64,000 nt of DNA from an uncultured Fidelibacterota bacterium. GTDB lineage: Bacteria > Fidelibacterota > Marinisomatia > Marinisomatales > UBA1611. A program made the position numbers and the translations under genes. Of this stretch, positions 33,082 to 64,000 are shown one piece after another. The notes beneath the pieces were generated by a model. That model made no database searches. It saw only the letters and a list, made by a program, of their open reading frames with translations, and was not told the DNA's origin. The stretch lies in assembly GCA_913040915.1 (NCBI GenBank), contig CAJWHW010000003.1, positions 1-64,000 on the forward strand, read 5' to 3'. Positions within the stretch are counted from its first letter, which is position 1. Every line of letters starts with the position of its first letter.

Positions 33082-34723
33082 ACTTCTTTTAAATCTGTCA
33101 ATCATTTCTCTTATAAGCGCAAGCGAATTATCTGTTCGACAATCTTACCATACCCTTTTTCTCGATAGCAGTAATGTCTGTGGTACTCCGTACATAAACA
33201 ATATAATTCGCCAAGGCCCCAGCGAACTAACAGAAGCTGAAAAATTAAAGATGGATGAAGTTGGACTGTTTATTCAGGGTAATGAAATTATTTCAAAGAA
33301 ATCTACTGATTTAGATCAAATATATGATACAGAACATTTTCGGTTTTATTATACTCTCGATGAATCATCTATTCATGTTGTGGAAAATCAAGGTTATGTA
33401 ATCACTATGGGTGAAGTGTTTGAAAATGTCTGGGACTTTTTTATGGATACTCTGGGATTCGAACAACCTCTTTTAAATCCGGAAAATGATCATTCACTAT
33501 ACGAAATCTATATTGAATATTTATCCCCTCAATATTTTGCTCTAACATATGGGCAAGGTTTTGGAGCATCCTGCCATGGATTTATAAAAATGCGAAATTC
33601 ATATTCTGGTTCACAATTTGATGATAATACAGTATTAGAAAATATCCAGGTTACAGCAGTACATGAATTTTTTCATGCAATTCAATTCAGTTATAATTGT
33701 TATGAAGAATTCTGGTTTATGGAAGCAACTGCAGTCTGGAGTGAGGATGAATTATTTAATGATATCAATGATTTCTATCGTTATATACCTACTTTTTTTT
33801 CAAACCCAGATGATCCCATTGGCACAGAAGGTAATTTCATGTATGGGACCTGTATCTTTTTCCAGTATATTGATGAACATTTGGGAGGGCGAGAAACCAT
33901 CCGCAAAAGCTGGGATTATTCTAGAGATTATGCCAGCCCAACAAAAAATATAAGTTACATGTCAATAGATGCTGCACTTCAGGATAACAATTCCAGTTTA
34001 GAAACGGCAATAAATCAGATGCGGATAGCGAACCTAATTCTTAGTTCCAATGAAGCAGCTGGTATTTATGCGTATGATGAAGCTGATGGCTATTTAACTG
34101 TGGTAAATCATCCACCAAAAGAAGATTACCTAATATTTGAAAAAGGGAACATTGATCAGATTGAAAATTTTTCACTCCAACGCTACAGTTCACATTATTA
34201 CTCTCTTACTACTGAATCTCCCGTATCATTATCACTAATAGCAACAAGTGGAGAGTTTTACTTTACATCGGTAGTGAAAATTTATGGGACTGACCAATGG
34301 GTAGTAAAGAGTGGATCAGAACTCAATATAGATCCAAAAATTGGGATTGATTGGATCGCATTAATTGTTTCTGCAATTGGAAAAGATGCAGATAATTGGG
34401 ATTATATTTTACGCTTAGATGATGGCTATTCAGAGGATTATACATTTTACCCACCTTACCCTAACCCTTCTTATGGACAAAGCATAAACTTTCAATTTCA
34501 AGTAATCACAGAACAAACTGTTGATTTTCGAATAATTGATTTATTAGGTCAGGAAATTTGGCATATCTCTAACTATTATGATGAACCCGAAGTCATAACT
34601 ATTGTTTGGCATGGAACAAACCATTTTGGCAAACAGGTCGCAAATGGTATTTATTTAGGTATTATGAAAGGAGAATCAAAAACAACACTACAGAAGTTTA
34701 CCTATTTAAAAAAATCAGATTGA
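33065..34723 (+). CDS. Secreted HExxH metallopeptidase (MXAN_6640-like) with C-terminal FlgD/T9SS-type domain
   Basis: Signal peptide; TAVHEFFHAIQ; WFMEATAVWSED; YPNPS...WHGTN..G..VANGIY. Confidence 0.75.
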   Translation: MNWINKLLLNLSIISLISASELSVRQSYHTLFLDSSNVCGTPYINNIIRQGPSELTEAEKLKMDEVGLFIQGNEIISKKSTDLDQIYDTEHFRFYYTLDESSIHVVENQGYVITMGEVFENVWDFFMDTLGFEQPLLNPENDHSLYEIYIEYLSPQYFALTYGQGFGASCHGFIKMRNSYSGSQFDDNTVLENIQVTAVHEFFHAIQFSYNCYEEFWFMEATAVWSEDELFNDINDFYRYIPTFFSNPDDPIGTEGNFMYGTCIFFQYIDEHLGGRETIRKSWDYSRDYASPTKNISYMSIDAALQDNNSSLETAINQMRIANLILSSNEAAGIYAYDEADGYLTVVNHPPKEDYLIFEKGNIDQIENFSLQRYSSHYYSLTTESPVSLSLIATSGEFYFTSVVKIYGTDQWVVKSGSELNIDPKIGIDWIALIVSAIGKDADNWDYILRLDDGYSEDYTFYPPYPNPSYGQSINFQFQVITEQTVDFRIIDLLGQEIWHISNYYDEPEVITIVWHGTNHFGKQVANGIYLGIMKGESKTTLQKFTYLKKSD

Positions 34724-35584
34724 TTCTGTAATTGTTCGAATCTCTTTTAGAATTTCTAAATAGTTTTCTTTTCCTTCTGTAAATCTAGAAATGTATTTCA
34801 TAGGTTTATCTTTTCTACCTACCAGAATGACATTAGCACCAGCTTCTTTTCTTGCTACTCTATCAATATTAGATAAAAACTGTTCATATTTATCTAATTT
34901 AATCCTGTATTCCTCGAGTTGAAGTGAGAGTTCTTGCACATAAAGCGAATAAGATGATTTAGGGTCTTGAAATAATGATTCATTTAAAACCTTATTAAAA
35001 TAATCAATATGCGGATCCAACAATTCTCTTTTATAACGGATGGTGTACAGGTGTTTTTTCAAAGGGATTGCTTCTTCATCCACATAAATGATCATCTTTT
35101 TAACTTTTTTAAAACCCTTTTCTAGTTTTTCTCTTTCTTTCGTATACTGTCTTTGAGATTTCTGAATAGAAATACTAAGGGAACGTAACATTTTTTGATA
35201 AGTAACGTTAGTGTCTGATGGGATTGTTTCGAGATCTATTGTATCTGTTTTTTTCATCTTACGTACTAATTTAACCAATTCCCTTGTAAGACTATCAACT
35301 TCTAAAATAGCATTGTTCATTCCTGTGTAACTGGGATCCAATCTCTCATATATTCGCAAATCATTATCTAAATAATACCGTAACTCCTTTTTCATTATTG
35401 GTTGCAGGTCATCCATATTTCTTGTTTCGGTTTTAGACCATTGCCGAATATTCAAGATCTGAACATCTACGGAATATACGTCATGCAATCTCCAAGGCTT
35501 AATTCGTCCCGCACAGTCCGCAAAAAAAAACAGGGTTCCCACTATTGCGAAAACCCTGGTCAATGCAAATAAACTGAAATTCAA
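34715..35584 (-). CDS. Hypothetical helical/coiled-coil lipoprotein
   Basis: Hydrophobic N-terminus with FADC lipobox-like Cys; charged, helix-prone body. Confidence 0.6.
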   Translation of the reverse strand: MNFSLFALTRVFAIVGTLFFFADCAGRIKPWRLHDVYSVDVQILNIRQWSKTETRNMDDLQPIMKKELRYYLDNDLRIYERLDPSYTGMNNAILEVDSLTRELVKLVRKMKKTDTIDLETIPSDTNVTYQKMLRSLSISIQKSQRQYTKEREKLEKGFKKVKKMIIYVDEEAIPLKKHLYTIRYKRELLDPHIDYFNKVLNESLFQDPKSSYSLYVQELSLQLEEYRIKLDKYEQFLSNIDRVARKEAGANVILVGRKDKPMKYISRFTEGKENYLEILKEIRTITESI

Positions 35585-35820
35585 ACTTTCAAATTCCCTT
35601 CATTGTAATATTGAACCAGGTTATCAAACCCACCAATGGGTTTTTCATCAATCACAATTTGGGGAACAGTACGTCCACCGGTCAATTTAAAAAGATCATC
35701 ACGACTAATCTCTTTTTCTTCAATGTCTATAGTTTGAAAAGGGAGACTCAATTCATTCAATAAACTTTTGGCAGAATTACAGGGTCCACACCAACTAGTT
35801 GAGTATATTTTAATTTTCAT
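35581..35820 (-). CDS. Glutaredoxin (GrxC-like)
   Basis: WCGPC, RTVPQI, IGGFD. Confidence 0.9.
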   Translation of the reverse strand: MKIKIYSTSWCGPCNSAKSLLNELSLPFQTIDIEEKEISRDDLFKLTGGRTVPQIVIDEKPIGGFDNLVQYYNEGNLKV

Positions 35821-35822
35821 AT

Positions 35823-38800
35823 TTATTTCAAAAAGAGCAATTTCTGTACTTTAGTTTTTTCTCCATACTTCATAACAGCAAAATAAGTTCCTGAAGAGAC
35901 TGAATTTCCTAACCTGTTTGTACCGTTCCATATAATTTTATAATGCCCGGAAGCCAATATCCCATTTTGTAACTCAGCTATTTCTCGACCTAGGATATCA
36001 ACAATAAATATTTTTATTCTGCCTGTAATCGGAATAGTATAATCCAAACTTGTTACAGGGTTAAATGGGTTAGGATAAGGCGAATTTAATACAAATTCGT
36101 TTGAATTTATTTGATCATCTACTGCTAATGGAGCAACATAATTATCTGGTGCTTCCGTTGTGAAACGAATGACCCTTTCATTTACTAATGGGGCTGCACC
36201 AGGTGCATAAACATTATTAAAGACATACTGTAAACCGTAACTTTTTGTCGGAGATTCTATCCCAACAGTAGAATAATTTTTTGTTACATCCACATCTTCA
36301 ACCTCTAAATATTGAAAATCAATAACACCGTCCCCTGTTGCAGTAGGCATAGATGATTGATCATGGAGAATAATTTGAAACGTCTCTTCTGTTTCTTCAT
36401 CATAGCCATTTAATGCTCTCGACCATTCAATAATAAATCGACCTATTTCTTCATCGAACCAAGTATATACATTGATCCAAATATCTATAATTTCATCATT
36501 ATTTGTGTCAATGGTTTCCAAATCATCGGAGAAAGGAGCTAACAACGCTTTGGGCCCCATATACATTGGAATTGACATATTCCAAAAATAATCAATATAA
36601 CAAGGAACGAATGATGCCCATCCATTTGAACTTACTGTTATTTGATTATAATTAATCCCATGATATTTAAATGTAAATGGAAGCTCTATATTTACGTGGT
36701 CATCATCATCTAATTGGTAATGTGTACCACCACTCCCTCCAAAACCAGGATCCAATTCCACCCAATTAAATTCAGGTGTTTGTTCATAACCCACATCAGT
36801 ATCATCATAGGCCCAATAACCGTACCTGTTCGGTGCAACAGGATTATTCGTTGTAGGTGGTGAAATATGAAGTTGAACTTTTTGGGAAAAAAAAGTATTC
36901 CCTTCTTTTTGTAATTCAATTAAAAATGTTAAGTCACTGCCATAAGCAACTTCTTCAATGGAAAAATTATAATTTGTTGTATGAGATGATGTTGTAAATG
37001 GATTAAACGAAGACAAAATATCTGACGCACTATTCAGAGTAATAGTCACACCTTCTGTCAATGCAGAAACTCCAATCCATAGATCTTCATATGAACCTGC
37101 GGAAAAATTTGAAATGGATAATTCGGGTGAGATCTCTGTATTAGGTGTAACAGAACTACTTTCAAATGAAATATTGAAGAAAGGTAGTTCAACATCAACG
37201 AAAAATTCGCAAATCAAATTTCCATTTCCATCTTCCAATAACCCAATCACACCTTGACCAGCATCTAAATTGTTTATTACAAATTCAATGCTAGGCAGAT
37301 TCACACTATTTCCTGGAGCTATAACAGGAACATCCAATGTAAATGTATTCGGTGATACCCTATCAGAAAAAATAACCTGCCCAGAAAAAGCGTTGGAAGA
37401 ATTTCCAGAACTATTTTCCAATGTAATAGTCAGGTTGACCAATTCCCCAAGCACAGGTTTGTCATCGCTGTTTTGTCCGATAACATGAATATTTGATAAT
37501 AACAAAGTGTTATTTGTTGGCTCTGGATTAACTACTTCATGACCCTGTATAAATCCGCCTTTATTAGCATAGACATTTAATGAACTGACTCCGGACATAT
37601 CTATAGTTGAAATAAATTTTCCTGATGCATCCGAAATTCCCTTAGCAATCAATACACTTCCATTCATTACACTGATTACTGCGCCCTTGACTGCATCTCC
37701 ATTGTTATTTTTTACTGTTAAATTCAATAATCCATCTTGAGATTTGAATGGACCAACTTCAAAATTAAACTGCTCTGGAGTATCAACATACACCTGGAGT
37801 GAAGGGTCACCTAAAATGTTATAAACATGTGCATAAAATTCCTGAGCTTCACCAGGTCCATTTTGAGCAGGAAATTCTTTAATTAAACCTGATTGTCCTG
37901 CCTGCATAGCAGGACCTAATTCCACAATGTCATGATTTAATATTGCATCGTACATATATGCATTAATTACATTATTATATTTTGTGCTTGTGTGAAGATC
38001 GGATGGTCCGACAAATGCCACTCCGCCTTTAGGTACCGAAGGAGTTCCACCTCTCATCACAGCTTCAGCGAAACAAGGATCCACATTATTGGCAAAATCG
38101 TTTGAGTTACATACATAACTCATGAAAACCGGAGTTAGCCAGCCATTATTCAAATCATTTACATCATCTACATGAAATTCCGGATAGTGCCATCCATTTG
38201 CATCACCCCATCCTCGGTAATTCACTATTCCTACACCACTATTTATTGCAGGAATTATATACGGTGCTCCCTGCTGAACAGGTGGATAAAAAACCGTATC
38301 AACTTGGCTATATCCAAAATCTAATAATTCATCCATCAGCCAATATGATGTCCATTTAGGTGTAATCGGAATTGGATACGTATTGGCATAATTTCCAGCA
38401 ACAATGAGTCCACGACTTAACCAATTAGCATCATACGCAAGTGGGTCCCTAGCGTATTTTATTGTTTTTGCCATCATGACCGCTAAATCAGATAAAGAAT
38501 CAATTGAAAATCTGCCAATAAAGACATCTGGAATATTATCATTACCAATAATGTAGGTGTATCTCTGATCTGATACGTCATTCTCCGGACCGTAATAAAA
38601 AGATGGAAATGCAGCAAAGCCATCCACATCACCAAGCAAAAGAACATACTCTAACATAGGATTTTCAGACAACTTATTTGAAATTGTAGTTTTTATTGCT
38701 TCTGCTGTCTCTCCTGCTTCTGACAGCGGAATGACCTGAACATCAAATCCTTGGGAATTTTTGAATTCAATAAAGTCACCTAAATAGTTCACAATACCAT

Positions 38801-39008
38801 CTGGTGTAATTATCATGAATGTACCTCTCTGGGGATTGATTTGAGATGGTAAAATATTATACTCATTCATAACCATATTTGTAAAAGCCATCGGTATTGG
38901 ATTTCCTATGATTTGTTCCTTTGTTTTACCACGGAATAATTTTCCTTCTCCATAAACAAAACATAATGAAAATAGAAAATAAAAGATAAATATTTTATTC
39001 AGTCTCAC
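35823..39008 (-). CDS. Peptidase C25 (gingipain/PorU-like) family protein with C-terminal FlgD/T9SS-type domain
   Basis: YVLLLGD, SDQRY, PDVFIGRF, VNYRGWG, SYVCNS, YNILGDPSL; YPNPFNP...SSGTYF...KLLFLK. Confidence 0.85.
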   Translation of the reverse strand: MRLNKIFIFYFLFSLCFVYGEGKLFRGKTKEQIIGNPIPMAFTNMVMNEYNILPSQINPQRGTFMIITPDGIVNYLGDFIEFKNSQGFDVQVIPLSEAGETAEAIKTTISNKLSENPMLEYVLLLGDVDGFAAFPSFYYGPENDVSDQRYTYIIGNDNIPDVFIGRFSIDSLSDLAVMMAKTIKYARDPLAYDANWLSRGLIVAGNYANTYPIPITPKWTSYWLMDELLDFGYSQVDTVFYPPVQQGAPYIIPAINSGVGIVNYRGWGDANGWHYPEFHVDDVNDLNNGWLTPVFMSYVCNSNDFANNVDPCFAEAVMRGGTPSVPKGGVAFVGPSDLHTSTKYNNVINAYMYDAILNHDIVELGPAMQAGQSGLIKEFPAQNGPGEAQEFYAHVYNILGDPSLQVYVDTPEQFNFEVGPFKSQDGLLNLTVKNNNGDAVKGAVISVMNGSVLIAKGISDASGKFISTIDMSGVSSLNVYANKGGFIQGHEVVNPEPTNNTLLLSNIHVIGQNSDDKPVLGELVNLTITLENSSGNSSNAFSGQVIFSDRVSPNTFTLDVPVIAPGNSVNLPSIEFVINNLDAGQGVIGLLEDGNGNLICEFFVDVELPFFNISFESSSVTPNTEISPELSISNFSAGSYEDLWIGVSALTEGVTITLNSASDILSSFNPFTTSSHTTNYNFSIEEVAYGSDLTFLIELQKEGNTFFSQKVQLHISPPTTNNPVAPNRYGYWAYDDTDVGYEQTPEFNWVELDPGFGGSGGTHYQLDDDDHVNIELPFTFKYHGINYNQITVSSNGWASFVPCYIDYFWNMSIPMYMGPKALLAPFSDDLETIDTNNDEIIDIWINVYTWFDEEIGRFIIEWSRALNGYDEETEETFQIILHDQSSMPTATGDGVIDFQYLEVEDVDVTKNYSTVGIESPTKSYGLQYVFNNVYAPGAAPLVNERVIRFTTEAPDNYVAPLAVDDQINSNEFVLNSPYPNPFNPVTSLDYTIPITGRIKIFIVDILGREIAELQNGILASGHYKIIWNGTNRLGNSVSSGTYFAVMKYGEKTKVQKLLFLK

Positions 39009-39043
39009 AGCTATTCCTTTTGATTGATATTCGATAGGTTATC

Positions 39044-41377: not shown

Positions 41378-41416
41378 AGTGTGTATACTAAGTATTTAAG
41401 TACTAACTCTAAATTA

Positions 41417-44400: not shown

Positions 44401-44434
44401 ATACAAACATAATTGAAAAAACTAATTTTTTCAT
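41417..44434 (-). CDS. Large secreted beta-propeller repeat protein with C-terminal FlgD/T9SS-type domain
   Basis: About 14 repeats of (F/V)xxWxDxR...IYxQ; YPNPFNG...WDG..SGIYF; RBS-supported start near 44434-44443 (ORF track 44476). Confidence 0.75.
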   Translation of the reverse strand: MKKLVFSIMFVSLTYSTGFDSNDGAPIRQGVHIEWYRTVSPGDQGEAIFVWSDTRYGMRNIFAHKVNHDGSMLWGESGAIVTNLPGRQEDPVSIEDGNGGVFIAWVDYRFDAQGDIFIQHLDSDGNLLMDENGIALAQVDGNQITINMCTDSLGGVFVTWQDKRGGVDEDIYGTHVSADNEIVAPGVGVAIAVEGGNQNAKTIEYAGDNQAFIAWADYREGENANIYGQRLNMDMTAVFAENGIPIANTTDQETKPRATFVNGETSFVTWKRGDANSKVYYQFVNESGLVFTNEKAISDDETLQAKPRVKRNSLGEVFVKWTDYRDDAVDGDQYFQKVNVNGDREWGNGVKIDPGAYRDFSARFNSNENGGLNVAWERGTFPDIEIMVRTINADGTFPAEPLNLTNSDGYQFSPILIGSTNDQFYIIYADQGTGSIDLKIQKIDNGSTVWGNSGITAMVGLDGDIKYTSRFRKGENDFFLTWEDNRSAKRIYGTRITENSVLYQDGKQLSYSDNSSDEIALPIVIKDDNNFFVGTYDATSTPKYLRINKLDESFENLWDSVGVAISSEADMRNAKLVSIGSGVGCFWSESRLWDNNIYFQYLDNEGNAILESGGVELVDASNDDFFITAIPTPDNKLMVFWMNEQWNPSGSYIVIKYLKIDQNGNTEIGWNPGGINLTDNFSASSSLQVKTLDDGTGIICLWNQIGNFADIYAQKVDWDGNKLWETNGLIVTDDENDQTNFSFSMNDTQTKALIVWEDFRNGQNFEIFGQLLNLENGSLSSEFVQFTSVVNDSIDNYMPTVENVTGDEFMVIWEDGRGYINDDPLLINGVDLYGSGFKVGQGMTTDINGVPICIAYHKQQNLQITHYSGEEFFLDWVDYRSSGKEDLANYYGRILSKAELLSNEPKCFDCDIPTEFSLKPAYPNPFNGKVAFEFFMPEKEAVNFRIYDITGRVVTDKLILPDFGGNYRIYWDGMNIAGQLVTSGIYFYEFNTSKNINRGKVTYLK

Positions 44435-44485
44435 TTTCATCATTCCTTCGTCAAATTTATGTTGTTTTATAAACAAATAATTTTA

Positions 44486-50158: not shown

Positions 50159-50183
50159 ATAAGATTAGAAAAACCCTCCGGAT

Positions 50184-53765: not shown

Positions 53766-53773
53766 AAGAGCCT

Positions 53774-54418: not shown

Positions 54419-54420
54419 TT

Positions 54421-55668
54421 CTACAGGCCGGATTGCAGCGCAGCACCCATGTGAAAAACAGGTAAATATGTCAGGACAACCATCAACGCTAAAATAGCAC
54501 CCACCATCAGGATTAATAATGGCTCAATTAAGGTGGTCATTCTCTCTACCAACGCATCTACTTGCTTCTGGTAGTAATCAGCGGCGCGATCTAGCAAATC
54601 ATCTAATTCACCGGTCTCTTCACCAGTGGACGCTAATTGTAACAGTATTGATGGGAATACTTCTGTACGACGGAGAGCTGTTGAAATATTATATCCATCT
54701 CGTATGTAATCAGATGCATCTTCAACAGCTTTTTCATAGACACGGTTATCAACAACTTTTTTCAATAATGCTGTGGATTCTAAAACAGGTACACCAGCAC
54801 CAATTAAAATTCCAAAAGTCTTACAAAATTTATTTAGTATAGATTGTTCTAATAATACTCCAAATACGGGGACTTTTAGTTTAAATGAGTCAATTACAAA
54901 TCCACCACGTTGAGTTTTAGAAATCAACCATATTATAAAAACAACAATGAATCCCATAAAGATCATAAATCCAGCATTAGCCTGCAACCAGGCACTTAAA
55001 TCAATCATTTTACGTGTGGCCAGAGGTAGTGACGCTCCTAGAGTTGCATATACTTCAGAAAATTTAGGAATGATAAGTAACATCATGACAAGAAGCATTA
55101 CGCCAAGAAAAACAACCATAAAGATTGGATAGCTCATGGCTGATTTTACCTTTCGTCGTGTATCATCTAGACTTTCTAGATAGGATGATAATTGTTCTAG
55201 TATTTCATTTAGGTTACCACTTACTTCACCAGCTTTCACCATGGCGACAAACAAAGTATTGAATACACCGGGATGTCTTGATAAAGATTCGGAAAGATTA
55301 AGACCCTTTCTGATATTTTCACTGACAGTGGTTAGAATTCGTTTAAACTTTTTGTGTTTTTCTTCAGCTCCAAGACTATGTATAGCTCTTTCAAGTGTCA
55401 AACCAGCAGCAAACATTGTTGCTAACTGGCGTGTGAAAAATACAATATTTGAAAGTGGAATTCTATTCTTAGCTCTTTCAATTGAAAGTTGTATCTCATC
55501 TATAAATGGTCCTAAAAAATCAAATGAATCATCCACTTCCTTCAATGTGATGACCATTTGGCCATTTGCCGATAATTTTTGAATGGCTAAGTCCAGAGAG
55601 TCTGCACGTATTTCCCCTTCCTTACGCTGTCCTTCTGAATTTTTAGTTAAATATGAAAAAATAGCCAC
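54421..55668 (-). CDS. pilC: Type IV pilus/T2SS inner-membrane platform protein PilC/GspF
   Basis: FTRQLATM, AGEVSGNL, AMSYP, GEETGELD, LIEP, YLPVF. Confidence 0.93.
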   Translation of the reverse strand: MAIFSYLTKNSEGQRKEGEIRADSLDLAIQKLSANGQMVITLKEVDDSFDFLGPFIDEIQLSIERAKNRIPLSNIVFFTRQLATMFAAGLTLERAIHSLGAEEKHKKFKRILTTVSENIRKGLNLSESLSRHPGVFNTLFVAMVKAGEVSGNLNEILEQLSSYLESLDDTRRKVKSAMSYPIFMVVFLGVMLLVMMLLIIPKFSEVYATLGASLPLATRKMIDLSAWLQANAGFMIFMGFIVVFIIWLISKTQRGGFVIDSFKLKVPVFGVLLEQSILNKFCKTFGILIGAGVPVLESTALLKKVVDNRVYEKAVEDASDYIRDGYNISTALRRTEVFPSILLQLASTGEETGELDDLLDRAADYYQKQVDALVERMTTLIEPLLILMVGAILALMVVLTYLPVFHMGAALQSGL

Positions 55669-57386
55669 TATAAATCTTCAACTGTTGATCTCATAACTTC
55701 TTCTATAGATGTTGTACCATCCAAAATACGTTCTAACCCAGCTTCCCTCAGTGTTACCATTCCATTATCTAAGGCAGCCTGTCTTATATCATCTTCATTA
55801 GCATTTTCAAAAACAAGTTTTCTGAGTTCTCTTGCCATTGGTATCATTTCAAAAATTGCTAATCGTCCCTTGTAGCCCGTATTACGGCATTCTGTACACC
55901 CTTTTCCATGGTAAAGCGGCCCTTTTATACGGCTTGATTCTAAGCCAACCAATGCTAATTCTTCATTTGATGGTTTATATTCTTCTTTGCATGATTTACA
56001 TATACGCCTTACCAAACGCTGGGCCATAACCAGATTTAAACAAGAACCAACCAGAAACGGTGCAATTCCAATATCAAGCAAACGTGTTAATGTTCCCGGA
56101 GCATCATTTGCGTGAACCGTTGAAAAGACTAAGTGACCAGTCAGTGCAAACTTTACCGCAATATCCGCTGTTTCACCATCACGGATTTCGCCAATAAGCA
56201 ACACATCAGGATCTTGACGCAAGATTGAACGCAGCGTTGAACCAAATGTAAGTCCAATATCTTCAAATACCTGTACCTGGTTCACTCCATCTAACTGGTA
56301 TTCCACTGGATCTTCAACAGTAGTTATATTAGTACGTTCACTTTTGATCTCTTTTAAAGCAGCGTATAGGCTTGTCGATTTACCGGAGCCTGTTGGGCCG
56401 GATACCACAACCATACCGTAAGGCTGATTAATTACCTTTTTAAAAACCCCAAGATTTCTTTTAGGAAAACCTAATGAAGTTAAATTGAAATCAAATCCAG
56501 TTTTATCTAAAAGACGCATTACAATCTTTTCCCCATAAACGGTTGGCAGTATTGAGACACGAACGTCGAGCTCTTTTCCGGGAGACTTTATTGAAAATCT
56601 ACCATCCTGGGGTAATCTTTTCTCTGCAATATTTAATTTTGACAGAATCTTAATTCGGGTTACTAAACCACTTAAGGATGTGACTGGTGGTGTCATAATC
56701 GTCTGGAGTACACCGTCAATGCGAATTCGTACATAAAGCTGTTTTTCCATAGGTTCAATATGCACATCTGTCGCACGCTCTTTAATGGATTCCTGTAAAA
56801 TCAAATTAACTAACTTTACAATAGGAGCATCTTCTTCTGAAGCTTTGTCCGGAGATAGATTAACTTCTTCTTTAGAGCCTTCATCACCAGAGATAACTGT
56901 AATATTGTCTAATACATCACTCACTTCTGCAGTTTTTTGGATCTCTCCATAAACTCTATCGAGCGATTTTTCCATCATGTCATGACCACAGACAATAATA
57001 TCAGGATTAAGGTTTGTTAATCGCTTGATGGAATCAATAGCCACTAAATCTTCAGGATCTTCCATGGCAACGGTAATTGCTGAATCATTTTTGTTTACTG
57101 CCAATACTCTGTTCGTTCTGGCAAAATCTTCAGGTATCATGGCAGCAATATTGGCATCGGCTTCCAGTAAAATAAAGTTGTCTGCTTTGCGGTATCCTAA
57201 CTGTTGAGCAAAAGCCGTTACAAAATCATCTTCTTCAATGATACCCATCTCAATAAGAGTAACGCCTATTTTTTCATTAGTTGATTTTTGTTGTGCTAAC
57301 CCTTCATTTAATTGGCCTTCTGTGACTTTTTCATTATGAAGAAGTATCTCACCTAATTTTGAAAATTGTGGGTTAAAATCATTCAT
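55668..57386 (-). CDS. pilB: Type IV pilus assembly ATPase PilB/GspE
   Basis: MshEN-like N-terminus, RLPQDGR, GPTGSGKS, TVEDPVEY, LRQDPD, CKSC/CTEC zinc motif. Confidence 0.93.
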   Translation of the reverse strand: MNDFNPQFSKLGEILLHNEKVTEGQLNEGLAQQKSTNEKIGVTLIEMGIIEEDDFVTAFAQQLGYRKADNFILLEADANIAAMIPEDFARTNRVLAVNKNDSAITVAMEDPEDLVAIDSIKRLTNLNPDIIVCGHDMMEKSLDRVYGEIQKTAEVSDVLDNITVISGDEGSKEEVNLSPDKASEEDAPIVKLVNLILQESIKERATDVHIEPMEKQLYVRIRIDGVLQTIMTPPVTSLSGLVTRIKILSKLNIAEKRLPQDGRFSIKSPGKELDVRVSILPTVYGEKIVMRLLDKTGFDFNLTSLGFPKRNLGVFKKVINQPYGMVVVSGPTGSGKSTSLYAALKEIKSERTNITTVEDPVEYQLDGVNQVQVFEDIGLTFGSTLRSILRQDPDVLLIGEIRDGETADIAVKFALTGHLVFSTVHANDAPGTLTRLLDIGIAPFLVGSCLNLVMAQRLVRRICKSCKEEYKPSNEELALVGLESSRIKGPLYHGKGCTECRNTGYKGRLAIFEMIPMARELRKLVFENANEDDIRQAALDNGMVTLREAGLERILDGTTSIEEVMRSTVEDL

Positions 57387-57405
57387 AGAATATTTCCTTT
57401 CAGTA

Positions 57406-60339
57406 TTAATCGCACTCTACTGGAGATCGAACCAATAAAATATCTAATGGATCACTCGTTGTAATAGTTGGAATCATTAATGTAGCGCTGATACTTGATG
57501 TAAAATCATCATAACTGCAGATTGGAGGATCATCAGTTGATGTATTTGCCAGATTACAAAGTTCTTTCAAATATCGAACAGATATACTCGCATACCCATC
57601 TTCATCAGTTAAAACAATTGGTTCGCATCCAATCATTGAGTAGCCATTCCATTCTCCGTCACCTTCTCCCTGATCAGCTGTACCTTCTAAACCATCTAAA
57701 CCAAAATCATCAAAATTCTCAGAAACTTCAGATACATCCCACTCACCATCACCTGTTGTGTCAATTGCATCATGGATATTATTATAATTTCCCCAATCAA
57801 CGGTCTCAGGGTCATCATCAGCTCCATAGTCCCTCCATGAAAAACAGCCATCATTTTCGCCAGCTAATATATCTCCTGAGTCTTCTAAAGTATCCAGTCC
57901 CCAATCTTCGTAGGCTTCATATCCTACTTCTACCCAGCGACTAACACCTGTACCTACAAATGACACTGGAGCACCTACTACTGGGTTTCCATAATAGTCA
58001 ATAACAATCGCCGTGACTGTAATGTCAACGGAGTCTGTAGGAAATGGTATGCTAAAATCATGGTAGGTTGCATTCGATGTAAGTGTCACCGCTCCTGGCA
58101 GGAAAAACAAGGTAGCATCTCCTTCACCTTCATTAATGTAAGACGATAGAAAATCACTTTCACCATCACCATCCAAGTCACCAGTCGCTGTTGTTGCCCT
58201 AACTTTTCCAATATCACCAATCGCATCTGTGGAATAAATTATAAATGATCTAGCCATACCAACAGTTGCTTCACCACTTTGAACACCTTCATTATTTGTA
58301 AAACTTACGCCTTCAACTACAGCATCAATAGTTGTATCAGGAGGCAGAGGAGCAATATCCCAATAAACGTAGGTTGTATCTTCTACGGGGTTACCATGTA
58401 TATCTGAAACAAGTGCGGCACACTCAGTCCGATAAAAACCTCCACCTACAGCTTCAGTACTGTTTGGATCATATTCAGCTTCTATACGATGAGGTTGTCC
58501 AGAAGCAATTGTTACAGGTACATCAATGACAGTTAGATCATTGCTACCATCCTGGTCACAGTCACAAGTAGCAACAATTCTTACTGGTCCTGGTTCGGAC
58601 CCACTATTAATAGAAACCGTAGCCACACCATTCACAGTATAAATTGTAGCCGATGTTTGCCCAGGTGTCTCTAAGTAAGCGTCACCAACTAAAGGTTCAA
58701 TTGTGAAGACGACTGGGGTTGGTGTGTTTATTAGTGTTCCATTATCATCATAGACTTCTGCCTTAATAAAAGTCGACTCAAGCCCACCACCATCTCTAAC
58801 AACAATATCGCCTGGTATTGACGCTGGAATCTCCATAAACGCACAGGTTTGAAAAGATGGATCTTCTATATAGACCTGTAGTGAATCTTGGATTAAGGTT
58901 GATGAAAACCCTGGGTGAGAAAACGTCGCCGAAATATCGGATACACCAACATCTTCCGGATTTCCTAAGTCTGTAAATACAGCAGTATCTGTACCTACAG
59001 TATCTGTTAAACCTATAGCATTAATAAAACCTAGGGTGGCTTCATAATTGATTTGAGCATTCCCAACGGGATTTCCGAGCTTATTGAGCAGCCGCGTTAC
59101 AATATTTGCAACTGTCTCCCCTCCATCAAGGGCAATTACATCTGTGTCTGTAGTAACAAAAAGATTGTAGGGCCACACATCATCTTCAGAATAGACATTG
59201 AATCTTTCACCTTCTGTAATTTTATCTCCAAATTTTGCAACTACAGTTACACCTTCAAAATTCGGCGTTCCAGGATTATCTTTATAGGTATTGCCGCCGT
59301 CATCAAAATGAGCAATGACCTGCCCATCTGAATTAGATACACTGCTCTGATAATTTATTGTACCCACATCAACATTGCTTGATGTGGCAACAAATTCTAC
59401 AGATTGTCCTGATATTGGATTTCCAGCTGTATCAGTAACCGTTGCAATGAGCCTGGTTTGAGATGCATCCCCTGCTATATCTTCACCAACCACGACTGTA
59501 TTATTCGATTCATCAAATGAGACTGGTAAGATCTCCATTGAGAGTCCATTATCGGTTCCAATGATAACTTGGACTGAATCAGATATGGACAAATCAAAAC
59601 CTTCATGGGTAAATGTGCATACAATATTTGCTGGTCCAATATCTTCTGGAACCCCATTATCCTGAAAAGTTAAGGTAACTGCTCCTGTGCTATCTGTTTC
59701 ACCTTCAGAATCAATAAAGCCCCGATCCGTATCAAATGATAGGATAACATTTTGAAGAGGTATATTTGATTTATTCAACAGTCGCGCTTCTATTTCTGCC
59801 GTAGTAGCGCCATTATCTAACTTGATATTGTCCACGTCCGATGAAACGAATAGTGTATATGGCCACACATCATCCTTTTCCTGATAAACATTAAATTGAG
59901 CTTTTGCCGTGATAGTTGTATTTGCATATGTCGCAGTAACAGTTAGACCTTCATAATCAGGCGTTGTTGTCCTGTCAACCATTTCTTCTGAACTGTTTGG
60001 CTTAAACGTGTTCACCACCTCTCCATTCTCATCAGTATTAACAGACCTACCATTAGTATAGTCTCCACCACCGCCACCATTATCTGAAAATGTGATGCTT
60101 TCATTTTTTATCGGAGTTCCGTCTGAATTATTCAGTGTAAACACCATACGCATATTAGATGAGCCAGATACAACTTCACCAACTGATGTACCATCATTTG
60201 TAACAGCCTGTAAGGAATTAAGTGTCAGTGTAGCATTCGGGTTTGTGGTCTCTTCAGGCAGTCTTTCATCACAAGCAAGGTTCATAAAAATAATGCCGTA
60301 GAAAATGGGATAAATAGATTTTGATTTAATTTTAAACAT
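57406..60339 (-). CDS. Large acidic lipoprotein with tandem Big_1/invasin-like Ig domains
   Basis: Start MFKIKS... at 60339 with AGGAG RBS (ORF-track start 60492 overlaps pilQ); lipobox NLAC; repeated ATVTD..GNP..G..V.F and TD..G motifs. Confidence 0.75.
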   Translation of the reverse strand: MFKIKSKSIYPIFYGIIFMNLACDERLPEETTNPNATLTLNSLQAVTNDGTSVGEVVSGSSNMRMVFTLNNSDGTPIKNESITFSDNGGGGGDYTNGRSVNTDENGEVVNTFKPNSSEEMVDRTTTPDYEGLTVTATYANTTITAKAQFNVYQEKDDVWPYTLFVSSDVDNIKLDNGATTAEIEARLLNKSNIPLQNVILSFDTDRGFIDSEGETDSTGAVTLTFQDNGVPEDIGPANIVCTFTHEGFDLSISDSVQVIIGTDNGLSMEILPVSFDESNNTVVVGEDIAGDASQTRLIATVTDTAGNPISGQSVEFVATSSNVDVGTINYQSSVSNSDGQVIAHFDDGGNTYKDNPGTPNFEGVTVVAKFGDKITEGERFNVYSEDDVWPYNLFVTTDTDVIALDGGETVANIVTRLLNKLGNPVGNAQINYEATLGFINAIGLTDTVGTDTAVFTDLGNPEDVGVSDISATFSHPGFSSTLIQDSLQVYIEDPSFQTCAFMEIPASIPGDIVVRDGGGLESTFIKAEVYDDNGTLINTPTPVVFTIEPLVGDAYLETPGQTSATIYTVNGVATVSINSGSEPGPVRIVATCDCDQDGSNDLTVIDVPVTIASGQPHRIEAEYDPNSTEAVGGGFYRTECAALVSDIHGNPVEDTTYVYWDIAPLPPDTTIDAVVEGVSFTNNEGVQSGEATVGMARSFIIYSTDAIGDIGKVRATTATGDLDGDGESDFLSSYINEGEGDATLFFLPGAVTLTSNATYHDFSIPFPTDSVDITVTAIVIDYYGNPVVGAPVSFVGTGVSRWVEVGYEAYEDWGLDTLEDSGDILAGENDGCFSWRDYGADDDPETVDWGNYNNIHDAIDTTGDGEWDVSEVSENFDDFGLDGLEGTADQGEGDGEWNGYSMIGCEPIVLTDEDGYASISVRYLKELCNLANTSTDDPPICSYDDFTSSISATLMIPTITTSDPLDILLVRSPVECD

Positions 60340-60349
60340 GCTGCACTCC

Positions 60350-61783
60350 TTATTCAGAATCTTCTTCAGATTCATCATGATCTTGTTGACTATGACTATC
60401 ATCATCTTCACGTTTATCATTTTTTGGCCCTTTGATAACATAATCTTCAAATTCAACCATATCTTCAGACTTTGTAATACCTGTATATGCATCTACAACA
60501 ATCTTTGGTGTTATTTGGATAATTAAATCTGTTTTACGTTCGACGATACCATTCGATGTAAACAATTTTTTCCCCAACCATGGAATTTTGCTTAAGACCG
60601 GGACTTGGTAGGTAGTCCTTTTTTTATCATTACTTAGTAAACCACCAATGATAATTGACTCACCGTCCCTTACCCTTATCGTCGTAGATGAAATTCTGCT
60701 TTTTACACGTGGAATATTCTGGTCCGGGCCTATAAACTCGAATATTGTAGATACTTCTGGCTCTACCTTACAGGTTATATACCCATCTGTATTCACTGTA
60801 GGCAGTATATTCAGCTTGATCCCTACTTCTTCACGCTGTACCTGTACCTGACCCCCAACACCACCTGAACTAAGGATGTAGGGTACAATATCAACTAATT
60901 TAATATTGGCTTCACGACCGTTTATTGTTGTCAGCCTTGAGTTTGCCAATACTTCAGCTTTGTTTGTTTTTTGAAGCATGTCCAGTGTAATATCAAAAGC
61001 AGTGAGTTGTCGGCTAAAGTACCGTGGGATAATGGCTGTTTCATCTTTTTTATCACTCAATCTATTGAACAGCATTGTCGCAGGGAGATCACCAAGTGTC
61101 TGCTCTGCAGGGACTACGGAACCACCCCCGTCTGTTTCAGGAACACCATTTTCAGCTAAAATAGTTTTATAATTTGATAGTTTAGACCAATCAATTCCCA
61201 GCTGCTCTTCTACATCTGCCGCAACTTCAATCAACCTAGTCTCTAACATAATCTGGATTGCAGGAACATCAATTTCTCGTACAACCTGAATGATTTCAGC
61301 GATTTTTTTTGGAGAAGCATTAACCAAGAGTTTATTACCAGGGATATCAACCTGAACCTGACCTGAAATGTCCTGGAGTAAGTTTTTCACATCTTCAGCT
61401 GATGCATATTTAAGCTCTATGACATGGGAAGAGACACCCACTTCTTCTTTTAACTTTTTGGGATCAGCAATTAAAAAAGAATTACCAACTACTTCGTAGC
61501 TCAAGCCAACGGCTCTTACAACCAAGTTAATCGCCTGTTCTATTGGAACTTCATCCAAATGAATAGATATTTTATCTTGCCTGTTCACATTGGGATCAGT
61601 CACAATATTATATCCACTTTCTGATGCTAAGATCGCTAGAATACTTGGTAAAAAAGCATCTTCAGCGTGTACACTGATTAATTTTTCTTCGTTAGACTGA
61701 GTAGGCTCGCTATCTTGACCCCAGAGCGGAAAAATAACTGCCCATATCAGCGCAAGAAGTTTTACCTTTTGTAAATAGTTCAT
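60350..61783 (-). CDS. pilQ: Secretin PilQ/GspD family (compact form)
   Basis: N0-like domain, LKYASA N3 domain, IDVPAIQIMLE, LGIDW, GIKLNILP, IIGGL, VPVLSKIPWLG, IQITPKIV. Confidence 0.9.
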   Translation of the reverse strand: MNYLQKVKLLALIWAVIFPLWGQDSEPTQSNEEKLISVHAEDAFLPSILAILASESGYNIVTDPNVNRQDKISIHLDEVPIEQAINLVVRAVGLSYEVVGNSFLIADPKKLKEEVGVSSHVIELKYASAEDVKNLLQDISGQVQVDIPGNKLLVNASPKKIAEIIQVVREIDVPAIQIMLETRLIEVAADVEEQLGIDWSKLSNYKTILAENGVPETDGGGSVVPAEQTLGDLPATMLFNRLSDKKDETAIIPRYFSRQLTAFDITLDMLQKTNKAEVLANSRLTTINGREANIKLVDIVPYILSSGGVGGQVQVQREEVGIKLNILPTVNTDGYITCKVEPEVSTIFEFIGPDQNIPRVKSRISSTTIRVRDGESIIIGGLLSNDKKRTTYQVPVLSKIPWLGKKLFTSNGIVERKTDLIIQITPKIVVDAYTGITKSEDMVEFEDYVIKGPKNDKREDDDSHSQQDHDESEEDSE

Positions 61784-61804
61784 TGTGGCATATCCCTTTA
61801 AGAT

Positions 61805-62404
61805 TTAATTCTTTTTATTATTTTTTTTCAAATAGCTGTAATCAGTTCCGTGCACCCAAACCAGATTTTGATTTGTCATGGGATTGACCTTACTCTTTTG
61901 ATTGAAGCTTGTGTTCAGATTACCGGGAGCTGGATAAGCTTTAAGACCAGCACTTGTTCGGATAAGTACTTGGGTCGCATCAATCAACTCGACCTTACCA
62001 ATATTTTCTATGTTATCTCCCACCGATACAGTATAAGCTTTACCTCTGTAATCTATTTGAGCTTGAAAGTGATTATTCCTCTGATACACCAGGGCAACAC
62101 GTACTGCATTTCGGTTTCTTCTGGAACGCCTACCTGTACCGTCAGCCATCGTTAATACATTTGTCAGCATCATTGGAGTATTGTTCAATGAAAATCGAAA
62201 ATCGCTTCTCTCAGCCAAACGGTTTTCTAGATAAGCGATAATATCTTCTAATTCTTTGTCTGTACCAAATTGCAGATTATTTGACCTCTCTTTTAGTCGA
62301 TTATATTTTTTATTCATTGGAAATAGCTTAAAACTGGTAGCAATCAGGGAAACGATTGTTATGCCAACCAACAGATTCCATATAGTCACTGATCTTTCAC
62401 TCAT
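61805..62404 (-). CDS. PilP/GspC-like protein (TM-anchored, no lipobox)
   Basis: Sits between pilO and pilQ; HR-like motif AQIDYRGKAYTVSVGDNI...V..I....VLI. Confidence 0.5.
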   Translation of the reverse strand: MSERSVTIWNLLVGITIVSLIATSFKLFPMNKKYNRLKERSNNLQFGTDKELEDIIAYLENRLAERSDFRFSLNNTPMMLTNVLTMADGTGRRSRRNRNAVRVALVYQRNNHFQAQIDYRGKAYTVSVGDNIENIGKVELIDATQVLIRTSAGLKAYPAPGNLNTSFNQKSKVNPMTNQNLVWVHGTDYSYLKKNNKKN

Positions 62405-62976
62405 TAGGATACCTTCGTTTTTGATTTGACAAGCGTTATCGTTGAGAGACTGACAACAAATTCTTGATCTATTAAGTCTTCTTCCTGAATATTTGCTTTT
62501 ATCCGTTGAATTCCATTTTTCACTTCAAATTCATCAATTGTGATTAACCTCGGTGATCTCTCTATCTCAGAAAGAAATTCCCCAAATTGCTCAAATGTGC
62601 ACTCAAGTGTTATGATGTACGGTGCTTCGAAGTATGTGGTTTTATTTTTTCGTGGTTTCGGCTTTATACCCAGCAGCTCAATATCTAAAGCTTCTAACAT
62701 ATTGGTTAGATTATTTAAAAATGGGAGATTCGCATCGTCAGCCAGAGAGTCTGCTTGTGACAAGGCCAGATTCTCCTGAAATAATGTAAAGACACGGTCT
62801 AACTGACTAGCTAAAATTTGTGCACTGATTAAATTCTCATTCAGCTCAGCCTGCTCATCTTCCAACAGCCTAATATCAAATGGTTTTTCCCCGATCATTA
62901 TGGAAGAACTGACCCAGAATGTGATGGTAAGTAAAACCAGAGCGCCAAATAATAATATATTTCTTTTTTCAGCCAT
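62404..62976 (-). CDS. pilO: Type IV pilus alignment protein PilO
   Basis: N-terminal TM, coiled coil, PYIITLECTFEQFGEFLSEIERSPRLITI; synteny. Confidence 0.8.
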   Translation of the reverse strand: MAEKRNILLFGALVLLTITFWVSSSIMIGEKPFDIRLLEDEQAELNENLISAQILASQLDRVFTLFQENLALSQADSLADDANLPFLNNLTNMLEALDIELLGIKPKPRKNKTTYFEAPYIITLECTFEQFGEFLSEIERSPRLITIDEFEVKNGIQRIKANIQEEDLIDQEFVVSLSTITLVKSKTKVS

Positions 62977-62984
62977 CTATCTCT

Positions 62985-63578
62985 CTATGAATAAGATTTA
63001 CGTCGATTCTTCTTAATTGTGGCTTCAATCTCAAAGCGTACAATATCCTGTCCTCGTACATTTATTTTGCTGTGACCAACATATTTGATTTTTCCAAAAT
63101 TTTGGGAGAAATTTTTATTCCTGCGCAGCGTTTGAACATATTCATCGATAATCTCAAAATCTTTGCGATCTTCAAAGGTAAGTGCAATACCACGAACTAC
63201 CAGTTTTTGCTTTTTATATCGCAGACCCGTTATTGCCATATCATCCGGTGTCATTGTTCCAAGAATCTCTAAATTTTGAGCCCAGAGATATCTGTTCTGC
63301 TCTAAATCAGCAAAGGCAAGGATATCATCCTTGGACAAATTTTTTCCTTCAGTCTGAAGCTTGGCAATTTCATCCTTTAATCTTTGAATTTCTTCTTTCT
63401 TCTGATCAATTATTTTGTTGTATCCTAATCCTATCATCCATGTTCGAATATTTACACCCAACAGAATAATCAGTAAGACTGCGAATGTACCCCATCTGAA
63501 CTGCTCCCTTATTCGCTGAAGTCTTGTTTCTGCACTCTCAGCTTTATTCAGGTTGATAAGAATGAACTGCCTATCCAT
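62985..63578 (-). CDS. pilN: Type IV pilus alignment protein PilN
   Basis: INLN (INLLP-like) N-terminal motif, TM, coiled coil, TPDDMAIT, RGIA; synteny. Confidence 0.75.
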   Translation of the reverse strand: MDRQFILINLNKAESAETRLQRIREQFRWGTFAVLLIILLGVNIRTWMIGLGYNKIIDQKKEEIQRLKDEIAKLQTEGKNLSKDDILAFADLEQNRYLWAQNLEILGTMTPDDMAITGLRYKKQKLVVRGIALTFEDRKDFEIIDEYVQTLRRNKNFSQNFGKIKYVGHSKINVRGQDIVRFEIEATIKKNRRKSYS

Positions 63579-64000
63579 TAGACATTCCTCCCCGAATACT
63601 CAAGCCCATCGCAGTGGCATATTGACTCTTATTTGTTAATGAAATGGAATCGCTCCCTTCAATATTTTCAAATGGATCGAATGAAGTGCATTCAATATTC
63701 AGTTTACTTGTAATAAAATCTGAAAGACCCTTGGTCTCACCACCACCGCCCAATAAAAATAGTTTTAAGAAAAAACTCTGACCAGTTTGTTTCGCATAAA
63801 ACCTCAGTGATCGTCTTAAATCTTCAACTAAATTATCGTAAACAGTACGCTCAGCAATTCCAACACCTGTAGATGGTTCATCGGTTTCAACGCTGCCAAC
63901 AGCGGCTAAACCACCCTTGTAGAGTAAATCTTGTGCTTCTATATAACTAATTTCTTTTAATTGAGATAATTCTTTAACAAAATGGTGTCCACCTATAGGT
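63571..64000 (-). CDS. pilM: Type IV pilus protein PilM, 3' part (5' truncated by window)
   Basis: LVEDLRRSLRFY...IFLLGGGGETKGL...FDPFENI...YATAMGLSIRG (actin-like PilM C-terminus). Confidence 0.85.
   Translation of the reverse strand, partial: PIGGHHFVKELSQLKEISYIEAQDLLYKGGLAAVGSVETDEPSTGVGIAERTVYDNLVEDLRRSLRFYAKQTGQSFFLKLFLLGGGGETKGLSDFITSKLNIECTSFDPFENIEGSDSISLTNKSQYATAMGLSIRGGMSNG

Follow-up and report, generated by a model that had tools for sequence, protein, structure and literature searches.

How poly-gamma-glutamate (PGA) could pass the outer membrane of a bacterium with two membranes, and which genes would serve that passage, is the question raised by a gene run in an uncultured member of the Fidelibacterota. 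The window, that is, the whole stretch of 64,000 nucleotides analyzed here, covers positions 1-64000 of contig C3 (84,144 bp; GenBank CAJWHW010000003.1) in a genome of 1.86 Mb that is 85% complete, and close homologues of its genes are named Marinimicrobia, Neomarinimicrobiota or Fidelibacterota (= SAR406). According to the open reading frame (ORF) listing of the window, 21 consecutive ORFs on the minus strand (34715-64000) carry genes for a PGA synthase, a type IV pilus and a series of exported proteins, and an earlier sequence-only reading had joined them all into a single functional unit. From gene content and comparative neighborhoods we conclude that the run comprises two things: a conserved PGA module (35823-53765) and a type IVa pilus cluster that starts at 53774 and continues beyond the window. 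Judged from the genes alone, the module rather probably serves polyglutamate synthesis, export over the outer membrane and processing at the surface.

The PGA module, its conservation and its proteins

The module consists of ten genes, listed here in the order of transcription, with T9SS standing for type IX secretion system and CTD for its C-terminal domain signal.

50184..53765, minus strand: C25 (gingipain-fold) protein with propeptide and C-terminal dockerin, first gene of the module; Peptidase_C25 153 bits, Propeptide_C25 92, Dockerin_1 29
48977..50158, minus strand: pgsB, poly-gamma-glutamate synthase, ATP-dependent amide ligase; TIGR04012 414.1 bits, cut-off 222.7
48541..48984, minus strand: pgsC, membrane subunit; TIGR04011 116.7 bits, cut-off 96.45; Pfam CapC 111.6, cut-off 27
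47397..48563, minus strand: "pgsW", a TIGR04332 poly-gamma-glutamate system protein; 297.1 bits, cut-off 100
46541..47419, minus strand: secreted basic protein with tandem jelly-roll domains (structure model); no Pfam or NCBIfam match
45510..46541, minus strand: basic 14-stranded outer-membrane beta-barrel (structure model); fold matches CymA and OmpG
44486..45523, minus strand: lipoprotein without family (the "LVIVD" protein of the earlier reading); lipobox LLFGC; position after the barrel conserved
41417..44476, minus strand: 1019-aa surface protein with T9SS CTD, body without known family; Por_Secre_tail 30 bits, TIGR04183 31.5 bits
39044..41377, minus strand: M14 zinc carboxypeptidase with transthyretin-like domain and T9SS CTD; Peptidase_M14 120 bits, CarboxypepD_reg 46, CTD 36.6
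35823..39008, minus strand: second C25 (gingipain-fold) protein, with T9SS CTD; Peptidase_C25 198.9 bits, TIGR04183 23.5, cut-off 23

Conservation was followed in four sets of neighborhoods: 27 relatives of the same order, 80 species loci, 20 distant loci of the phylum and metagenome contigs from outside the phylum. Wherever contigs reach in families f1, f7, f11 and f14, the order from the pil genes to a glutaredoxin gene past the second C25 gene is kept, and five relatives (G025, G027, G028, G029 and G033) keep C25, pgsB, pgsC, pgsW, basic protein, barrel, a gene of 360-410 aa and the CTD protein. Among the assessable species loci, basic protein and barrel are present in 67/67, the 1019-aa CTD protein in 51/51 and M14 in 50/50; C25 and pilC lie upstream of pgs in 56 of 58, with a C25 gene directly upstream of pgsB likewise in 56 of 58. 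Of 20 loci taken from elsewhere in the phylum (different families, orders and classes), 19 hold pgsBCW, at least one of basic protein and barrel (18 hold the two), a C25 homologue and the 1019-aa CTD protein. The parts stay together there while gene order shifts, and in the other classes (f28, f30 and f31; seven loci) the C25 gene follows the lipoprotein gene, with no pil gene near.

The linkage also reaches beyond the phylum. A profile of the barrel retrieved 621 family representatives among 1.84 billion proteins, the named members coming from metagenome-assembled genomes of Stahlbacteria, Cloacimonadota and Krumholzibacteria. Scanning metagenomes with the Krumholzibacteria barrel yielded 8 loci; the same scan with the Cloacimonadota barrel yielded none. 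C25-like, pgsBCW, basic protein, barrel and lipoprotein-like genes are all present in two of these loci (L143 and L145), L147 has every one of these genes save a detected lipoprotein-like match, and in L150 the basic protein is cut off at the locus end. Module genes occur in two arrangements on the Krumholzibacteria-like contigs.

Presence and absence follow the same lines. PgsW, barrel, basic protein, C25, CTD protein and M14 were found in the same 10 GTDB families (41 relatives), and none of them turned up in one common set of six genomes (92-99% complete); PgsB scored above its cut-off in 0/5 of those pgs-less genomes that were checked. Taken singly, the 1019-aa CTD protein occurs in 33 of the 41 relatives and in 0/6 pgs-less genomes, and M14 in 32 of the 41, the same six genomes being without it. 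As the relatives are kin and not independent, we read this as a consistent pattern and not as a statistic. The joining of pgsBC to the basic protein, barrel, lipoprotein, C25, M14 and CTD protein, proposed earlier, is supported, its core linkage holding across the phylum. The pil genes, by contrast, are detached from the synthase in many lineages.

At the core of the module, the PgsB match is full-length (TIGR04012 model positions 2-380 of 380), and the TIGR04332 gene adjoins pgsB-pgsC in every locus examined. The label "pgsW" was not met in that sense among the literature matches listed for the term. Hydropathy places hydrophobic segments at residues 20-44 and 346-373 on either side of a domain of ~300 aa, so that the protein is predicted to have two transmembrane helices around an extracytoplasmic domain. 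It has no Pfam match even at E 10, and a PDB profile search returned chance-level matches only (best E 0.0032). We found the TIGR04332 protein in 150 of 316 Marinimicrobia genomes searched, about half, and the Atlas lists sister clusters in Synergistota, Bipolaricaulota and WOR-3. A scan of genome contigs with the PgsW alignment confirmed 329 relatives, of which the 80 taken forward give no view outside the phylum.

Components familiar from other PGA systems are missing next to the synthase. PGA_cap (PgsA/CapA) was not found by Pfam in the 21 proteins of the run, nor was a CapD (gamma-glutamyltranspeptidase) or PgdS family in the cluster. The earlier statement that no CapA, CapE, CapD or PgdS is recognizable holds within the cluster, with the limit for PgsE/CapE that so small a peptide is too short for the ORF and family searches. 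Two full-length gamma-glutamyltranspeptidase genes lie far from pgs (C14:24491-26032 and C48:2653-4191; 543 and 534 bits); CapD of Bacillus anthracis, a transpeptidase that anchors PGA, belongs to this family (PMC4928254). The only PGA_cap domain in the genome resides in a secreted protein of 1584 aa on contig C14 (C14:4276-9030; L151:1277-6031), composed of PKD, PGA_cap (CapA-like, 199 bits) and dockerin domains. Its orthologues occur in 23 of the 41 relatives and in 0/6 pgs-less genomes. As an obligatory partner of the module it was rejected, since eight pgs-positive genomes of 92-99% completeness yielded no orthologue.

Two proteins encoded downstream of the synthase stand out by charge. 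The structure model of the basic protein (39 sequences; predicted local distance difference test score, pLDDT, 87) contains two jelly-roll domains, at residues ~22-157 and ~160-292, which match CBM6/35/36-like folds at Z 8-9 and the carbohydrate-binding domain of BcsB at Z 8.2. The barrel model (37 sequences; pLDDT 89, predicted template modeling score 0.82) has 14 strands, with CymA as best match (Z 23.9, root-mean-square deviation 3.3, 284 aligned) and OmpG at Z 21.8; AlgE is not among the structural matches listed. An Atlas search with the barrel gave leads only, namely one cluster with PF10082 in 46% of its members and a second with SlipAM in 19%. The median isoelectric point (pI) is 9.7 for the basic protein (39 orthologues) and 9.15 for the barrel (37 orthologues), both being basic in nearly all orthologues, and the other exported proteins of the cluster have a pI of 4.0-4.5. 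A positive periplasmic binder and a positive channel would agree with a polyanionic cargo, and on these models the basic protein is a candidate periplasmic binder or guide for a polyanion and the barrel a candidate exit channel for the polymer.

For the lipoprotein at 44486..45523 and the 1019-aa protein no sequence relatives were found in the PDB. The name "LVIVD" given earlier to the former rests on a Pfam match at E = 0.14, below cut-off, and could not be confirmed. The "propeller" ascribed to 41417-44476 could not be recovered either, the CTD alone being detected and no family for the body.

The C25 proteins share by sequence the fold of the gingipains RgpB and Kgp and of PorU (MEROPS C25, clan CD; PDB 1cvr and 4ief at E 1e-20 to 1e-31). 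Like these, they keep the Cys nucleophile, one of them has a propeptide, and both have T9SS or surface-attachment tails. They differ from gingipains in the catalytic histidine, replaced by Tyr, Trp or Phe, and in the S1 residues Glu152 and Asp163, which are not kept in the RgpB alignments. In these alignments both window proteins retain Cys244, and His211 is replaced by Tyr (50184-53765) or Trp (35823-39008). The C25-dockerin protein has Y, F or W at the histidine position in 92/92 loci of the order and Cys in 91/92; in the C25-CTD protein, 64 of 66 loci show W and the other two Y, with Cys in 65/66. Among 19 distant loci and 5 metagenome loci, the pgs-linked C25 never has His at this place. 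PorU of the same genome and a third, dockerin-tailed C25 paralogue (contig C5) keep GHG, and this, together with a kept Cys and a replaced His, argues for a distinct, pgs-tied subfamily and not for decay. The histidine-less proteins are probably not ordinary peptidases; the earlier term "peptidase-family" is right as to Peptidase_C25 membership (cut-off 23) and may mislead as to activity, the catalytic His being absent. In families f2, f10 and f16 the C25-dockerin protein has orthologues of 1810-1836 aa with a nidogen-like (NIDO) domain (L018:2580-8057, L026:9137-14569 and L028:12308-17818). This long form, the one present in G025, G033 and G039, ends in a T9SS CTD, which replaces the dockerin.

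The C25-CTD protein is not PorU (NF033707 41.1 bits against a cut-off of 420). The true PorU of the genome lies on contig C9 (563.5 bits), SprA is encoded elsewhere, and the genome has ~45 CTD matches. With TIGR04183 scores of 31.5 (1019-aa protein), 39.0 (M14) and 23.5 bits (C25-CTD) at a cut-off of 23, the CTD proteins are by their predicted tails cargo of a T9SS encoded elsewhere in the genome. In the M14 protein, the motif vHaeE falls on the HxxE of the second domain (II) of carboxypeptidase D, the Glu in "vECG" falls on the catalytic Glu of that domain, and the alignment to carboxypeptidase T gives the same picture; by HxxE and catalytic Glu, the active site appears intact. The phage PGA hydrolase PghP is related to carboxypeptidase A (PMC4497714), which by analogy makes a role of M14 on gamma-glutamyl chains plausible.

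Dockerin_1 scores above cut-off at seven places in the genome (two more lie below); the C25-dockerin protein accounts for one of them and the C25 paralogue that keeps His for another. A protein of 1147 aa with two cohesin domains and a T9SS CTD (C15:37201-40644; L152:2202-5645) is a candidate surface scaffold.

Proposed route of the polymer and competing explanations

In the route that we consider rather probable, PgsB and PgsC polymerize glutamate at the inner membrane, an activity established at the level of the families. The TIGR04332 protein, in place of PgsA/CapA, would pass the chain to the periplasm; the basic jelly-roll protein would bind the polyanion and lead the chain to the barrel; and the basic 14-stranded barrel would be the outer-membrane exit, with the lipoprotein (44486..45523) as a putative export accessory. 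These export roles are suggested by fold, charge, signal peptides, invariant linkage and co-occurrence. By way of the T9SS, the 1019-aa CTD protein, M14 and the second C25 protein would reach the cell surface, and the first C25 protein would dock through its dockerin, where orthologues elsewhere use a CTD. Once there, the surface proteins might trim, hold or anchor the polymer: M14 is, speculatively, a candidate gamma-glutamyl exo-peptidase, and the histidine-less C25 proteins may be binders or non-canonical transpeptidases. The pilus cluster would lie upstream through inherited gene order and would not be needed by the module. A bolder version, to which we give a small chance, makes the pgs-linked C25 proteins a new class of PGA-acting enzymes in which Cys would form an acyl-enzyme and the alpha-carboxylate of the substrate would replace His, cutting the polymer and transferring it to surface acceptors; with basic protein, barrel, M14 and, in this family, a cohesin-dockerin scaffold, this would yield a covalently anchored coat.

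Several observations weigh against synthesis and export of PGA by the module. PGA synthesis is read here from the genes. The fold matches of the basic protein are of middling strength (Z 8-9), and known polymer-export barrels score lower against the barrel model (PgaA Z 14.6, BcsC 14.0, PelB 13.8) than CymA and OmpG, so that the barrel could be an uptake channel. Locus G274 contains pgsBCW (27-35% identity) without any partner. A small number of losses may account for the six genomes without pgs, and the collinearity of the region among close families means that part of the linkage is inheritance. The pil genes, too, track the module to some degree: 8 of the 10 families with pgs have PilQ orthologues, against 0/6 pgs-less genomes, and six of nine f17-f20 loci show a pilin-pilT-minor-pilin block running divergently from the C25 gene. 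Lastly, no junction is bridged in three metatranscriptome runs of the same sample (contigs; 41000-60999). Two contigs of ~155 nt fall on the C25-dockerin gene (51331-51485 and 52548-52698; 1-2 differences) and may be RNA or DNA carry-over; besides these there are a few short partial fits. For 45500-55400, no RNA library was listed as containing the sequence.

Explanations of a different kind were weighed as well. Gamma-glutamyl chains, short or long, might be attached covalently to surface proteins or lipopolysaccharide, without a free capsule, and the histidine-less C25 proteins would then do the attaching in the manner of the transpeptidases PorU or CapD. The T9SS sortase PorU has the C25 fold (PorU matches here are weak), PGA of Bacillus anthracis is anchored by the transpeptidase CapD (PMC4928254), and the linkage of the C25 subfamily with pgsBCW crosses phyla. 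The kept Cys (91/92 and 65/66) and the kept propeptide, moreover, point to chemistry rather than decay. Yet no replacement base was identified for the missing His and no acceptor is known, and clan CD enzymes require a His-Cys pair. The barrel and the basic protein also fit transport of a free polymer better, and we regard covalent attachment as unlikely. Alternatively, C25, M14, CTD protein and barrel could serve feeding on outside peptides or PGA and stand beside pgsBCW by shared descent. Marinimicrobia have been read as peptide degraders, with C25 among their extracellular peptidases (PMC8359207); the barrel is closest to the uptake channels CymA and OmpG, and M14 looks active from its motifs. 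Both C25 proteins, however, are without the catalytic His that the other C25 paralogue of the genome keeps, all parts share the presence/absence pattern of pgsBCW, and rearrangement has left the genes linked across classes as well as in a second group at phylum level. A feeding function is, in our view, quite unlikely.

The pilus block, gene packing and transcription signals

Upstream of the PGA module, the window contains nine genes of a second block.

63571..64000, minus strand: pilM, 3' part (full gene 352 aa, L023:571-1629), pilus block; PilM_2, TIGR01175
62985..63578, minus strand: pilN; Pfam PilN 25.3 bits, cut-off 22.8
62404..62976, minus strand: pilO; Pfam PilO 40.2 bits
61805..62404, minus strand: PilP-like, weak assignment; TIGR03021 25.7 bits (cut-off 34.65), position between pilO and pilQ kept in relatives
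60350..61783, minus strand: pilQ secretin; Secretin 128 bits, Secretin_N, STN; best NCBIfam match TIGR02515, below its cut-off
57406..60492, minus strand: Big_1 (Ig-like) lipoprotein, probable start at codon 52; Big_1 79 bits, lipobox MNLAC, position kept in relatives
55668..57386, minus strand: pilB assembly ATPase with N-terminal MshEN domain; T2SSE 450 bits, MshEN 46 bits; NF053729 54.5 bits, cut-off 38
54421..55668, minus strand: pilC platform protein; T2SSF 198 bits
53774..54418, minus strand: pilD prepilin peptidase (A24); Peptidase_A24 38.3 bits

Pfam and NCBIfam matched the names given earlier to PilM/N/O, PilQ, the Ig lipoprotein (Big_1), PilB, PilC, the A24 peptidase, C25-dockerin, PgsB, PgsC, M14-CTD, C25-CTD and glutaredoxin; "PilP-like" keeps its position between pilO and pilQ and falls short on score. 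The minus-strand run extends past the window to C3:77239, ~42.5 kb in all, and its off-window part encodes the full PilM, a 750-aa protein, two minor pilins, the retraction ATPase PilT, a pilin with the prepilin cleavage motif GFTMIE (cut after G) and three T9SS-CTD proteins. All parts of a type IVa pilus are thus present (pilin, PilB, PilC, PilD, PilMNO(P)Q and PilT). Models of the type II secretion system, GspE, GspF and GspD, all score below cut-off, and the ATPase and the secretin score higher with the PilB and PilQ models, the PilB equivalog itself reaching 621 at a cut-off of 675.65. The platform protein behaves otherwise, scoring higher with the GspF model (335.3 bits, still below cut-off) than with the PilC models (313.1). 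PilT and PilMNO argue for a pilus over a type II secretion system, and by its gene content we read the block as a complete type IVa pilus cluster, a gene neighbor of the PGA module that lies outside the unit. Every core part of type IVa machinery being there, it differs from that machinery in the Big_1 lipoprotein between pilQ and pilB and in the MshEN c-di-GMP domain of PilB, which suggests that pilus assembly is under cyclic di-GMP control.

The sequence-only reading had instead combined all of the at least 21 genes into a single system, with the pilus/secretin machine as exporter of the protein parts of a PGA surface layer. One strand and tight spacing over the whole run favor it, as do the collinearity of pilB-pilC-pilD-C25-pgsB in 56/58 assessable loci, the distribution of PilQ orthologues and the divergent pilin-pilT block set out above. 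But pilin, minor pilins and PilT make this a retractile type IVa pilus, and the module is detached from it in many lineages: five relatives from the order itself (G025, G027, G028, G029 and G033; families f2, f4, f5, f6 and f10) show no pil neighbors, nor do the seven loci from other classes or the metagenome contigs. Of the five pgs-positive f4/f5 genomes checked (88-97% complete), four have no secretin-family gene, and in f2, f6, f10 and f16 the PilQ orthologues lie on other contigs. Where pil does adjoin pgs, the same relatives also keep the order of unrelated far-side genes (AlaRS and neighbors, two plus-strand genes), so that the adjacency amounts to no more than background synteny, and unrelated neighbors are packed equally tight. 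Nor does the secretin seem to be the exporter of the protein components, as these bear T9SS CTDs and the genome encodes PorU and SprA elsewhere. Taken together, a single pilus-driven system is very improbable, and the two-part reading, a PGA module beside a pilus cluster, is the one that we retain. That the pil block is kept beside the module in two arrangements can be explained by a single inversion. The divergent form (L128, L129, L130, L137, L139 and L140; f17-f20) has the pilin-pilT block ~370-920 bp head to head from C25, unlike the collinear order of the window.

Packing of the run was described correctly before, as at least 21 tightly set minus-strand genes with gaps of no more than about 50 bp. 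From pilM onward the junctions measure -8, 8, -1, 21, 10, 19, -1, 2, 8, 25, -8, -23, -23, -1, -14, 9, 39, 35, 2 and -4 bp, so that 13 of 20 overlap or are at most 10 bp and the largest is 39 bp; the value of 10 bp presumes that the Big_1 ORF starts at codon 52, just before the lipobox, the listed ORF overlapping pilQ by 143 bp. A crude gene call of the whole genome gave 92% coding sequence, a median same-strand gap of 7 bp, 72% of gaps at or below 50 bp and 11 same-strand runs of at least 20 genes. The adjacent run at 7295-32192 consists of 21 unrelated housekeeping genes (including AlaRS, IMPDH, TatC, FtsY and MiaB), with 18 of 20 junctions at or below 32 bp. Because dense packing is common in this streamlined genome, strand and spacing tell little about shared function.

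Three further features close the run on its downstream side.

35581..35820, minus strand: glutaredoxin, conserved neighbor; TIGR02196 and TIGR02181 ~69 bits, below cut-offs; follows the C25-CTD gene in four families
34715..35584, minus strand: basic lipoprotein-like protein of 289 aa, last in the run, membership doubtful; no family, lipobox-like FFADC, 22-34% identity in relatives
35522..35558, minus strand: terminator-like hairpin of 12 pairs (6 G-C) followed by nine T; 23 nt past the glutaredoxin stop, within the signal-peptide codons of the next ORF

The hairpin is the only strong one among 16 terminator-like rows (two recur in the overlap), and it may mark the end of a transcription unit or be a by-product of FFF codons. 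Terminator-like matches are no commoner than in shuffled sequences (10 vs 10.4 and 6 vs 8.7), and the same holds for promoter-like matches under the sigma-70 model alone (79 vs 93.5 and 46 vs 51.2).

The three off-window T9SS-CTD proteins lie upstream of the pilin gene on the same strand (L023:6613-14239; C3:69613-77239) and comprise an M6-like peptidase of 1324 aa that has an RTX repeat, a protein of 249 aa and one of 893 aa with PMP repeats. At the other end of the window, a plus-strand ORF of 631 aa (544-2439) is an unusual fusion in which a glycoside hydrolase family 1 domain (288 bits) is followed at the C-terminus by an AhpC/TSA peroxiredoxin domain (86 bits).

Relation to known systems and significance

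Fusobacterium nucleatum is reportedly the first Gram-negative bacterium shown to make PGA. The Bacillus systems PgsBCA(E) and CapBCADE share with the locus described here true PgsB and PgsC family members and the same logic of a synthase with anchoring or cutting enzymes (PMC4928254). They differ from it in that the Fidelibacterota cluster has TIGR04332 instead of PgsA/CapA and no adjacent CapD or PgdS, and in that this cell has an outer membrane, with a barrel, a periplasmic basic protein, a lipoprotein and T9SS/dockerin surface proteins added. Closer in its core is Francisella capBCA, along with other diderm pgsB-pgsC-TIGR04332 triads, which have the same three genes, the match to Francisella being by name only: its capA is annotated "poly-gamma-glutamate system protein" (PMC5362203, Table 3), the sole use of that term in the literature searched. 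In the sections of PMC5362203 covered, no barrel, jelly-roll or C25 partners are described for that locus.

The scheme that we propose, an inner-membrane synthase with a periplasmic binder and a barrel, is that of synthase-dependent exopolymer secretion (AlgK/AlgE for alginate, PgaA for PNAG, BcsB/BcsC for cellulose, PelBC for Pel). The porins of those systems, however, have 16-18 strands and usually tetratricopeptide repeats (TPR) or a partner lipoprotein, whereas the barrel here has 14 strands and no TPR; the polymer would be a polyamide and not a polysaccharide, and there is no sequence relationship.

In the literature searched, no paper was found that describes the module or that links Marinimicrobia (SAR406) with poly-gamma-glutamate or pgs/cap. 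As far as found, the non-pilus half of the run appears, by its conservation, to be a widely conserved and undescribed extension of the PGA synthase for cells with two membranes. The same literature gave no explanation for how PGA passes the outer membrane of such bacteria, and the module supplies candidates for each step. C25 genes counted as "gingipain-like extracellular peptidases" in marine surveys (PMC8359207) may not all stand for proteases, those of the module being a case in point. A polyanionic coat on abundant ocean cells, if true, would bear on metal and cation binding, on resistance to grazing and phages, and on the nitrogen-rich dissolved organic matter that is released; and should the polyglutamate be covalently anchored, such a coat would be carried by a bacterial group that ranks among the most abundant in the dark ocean.

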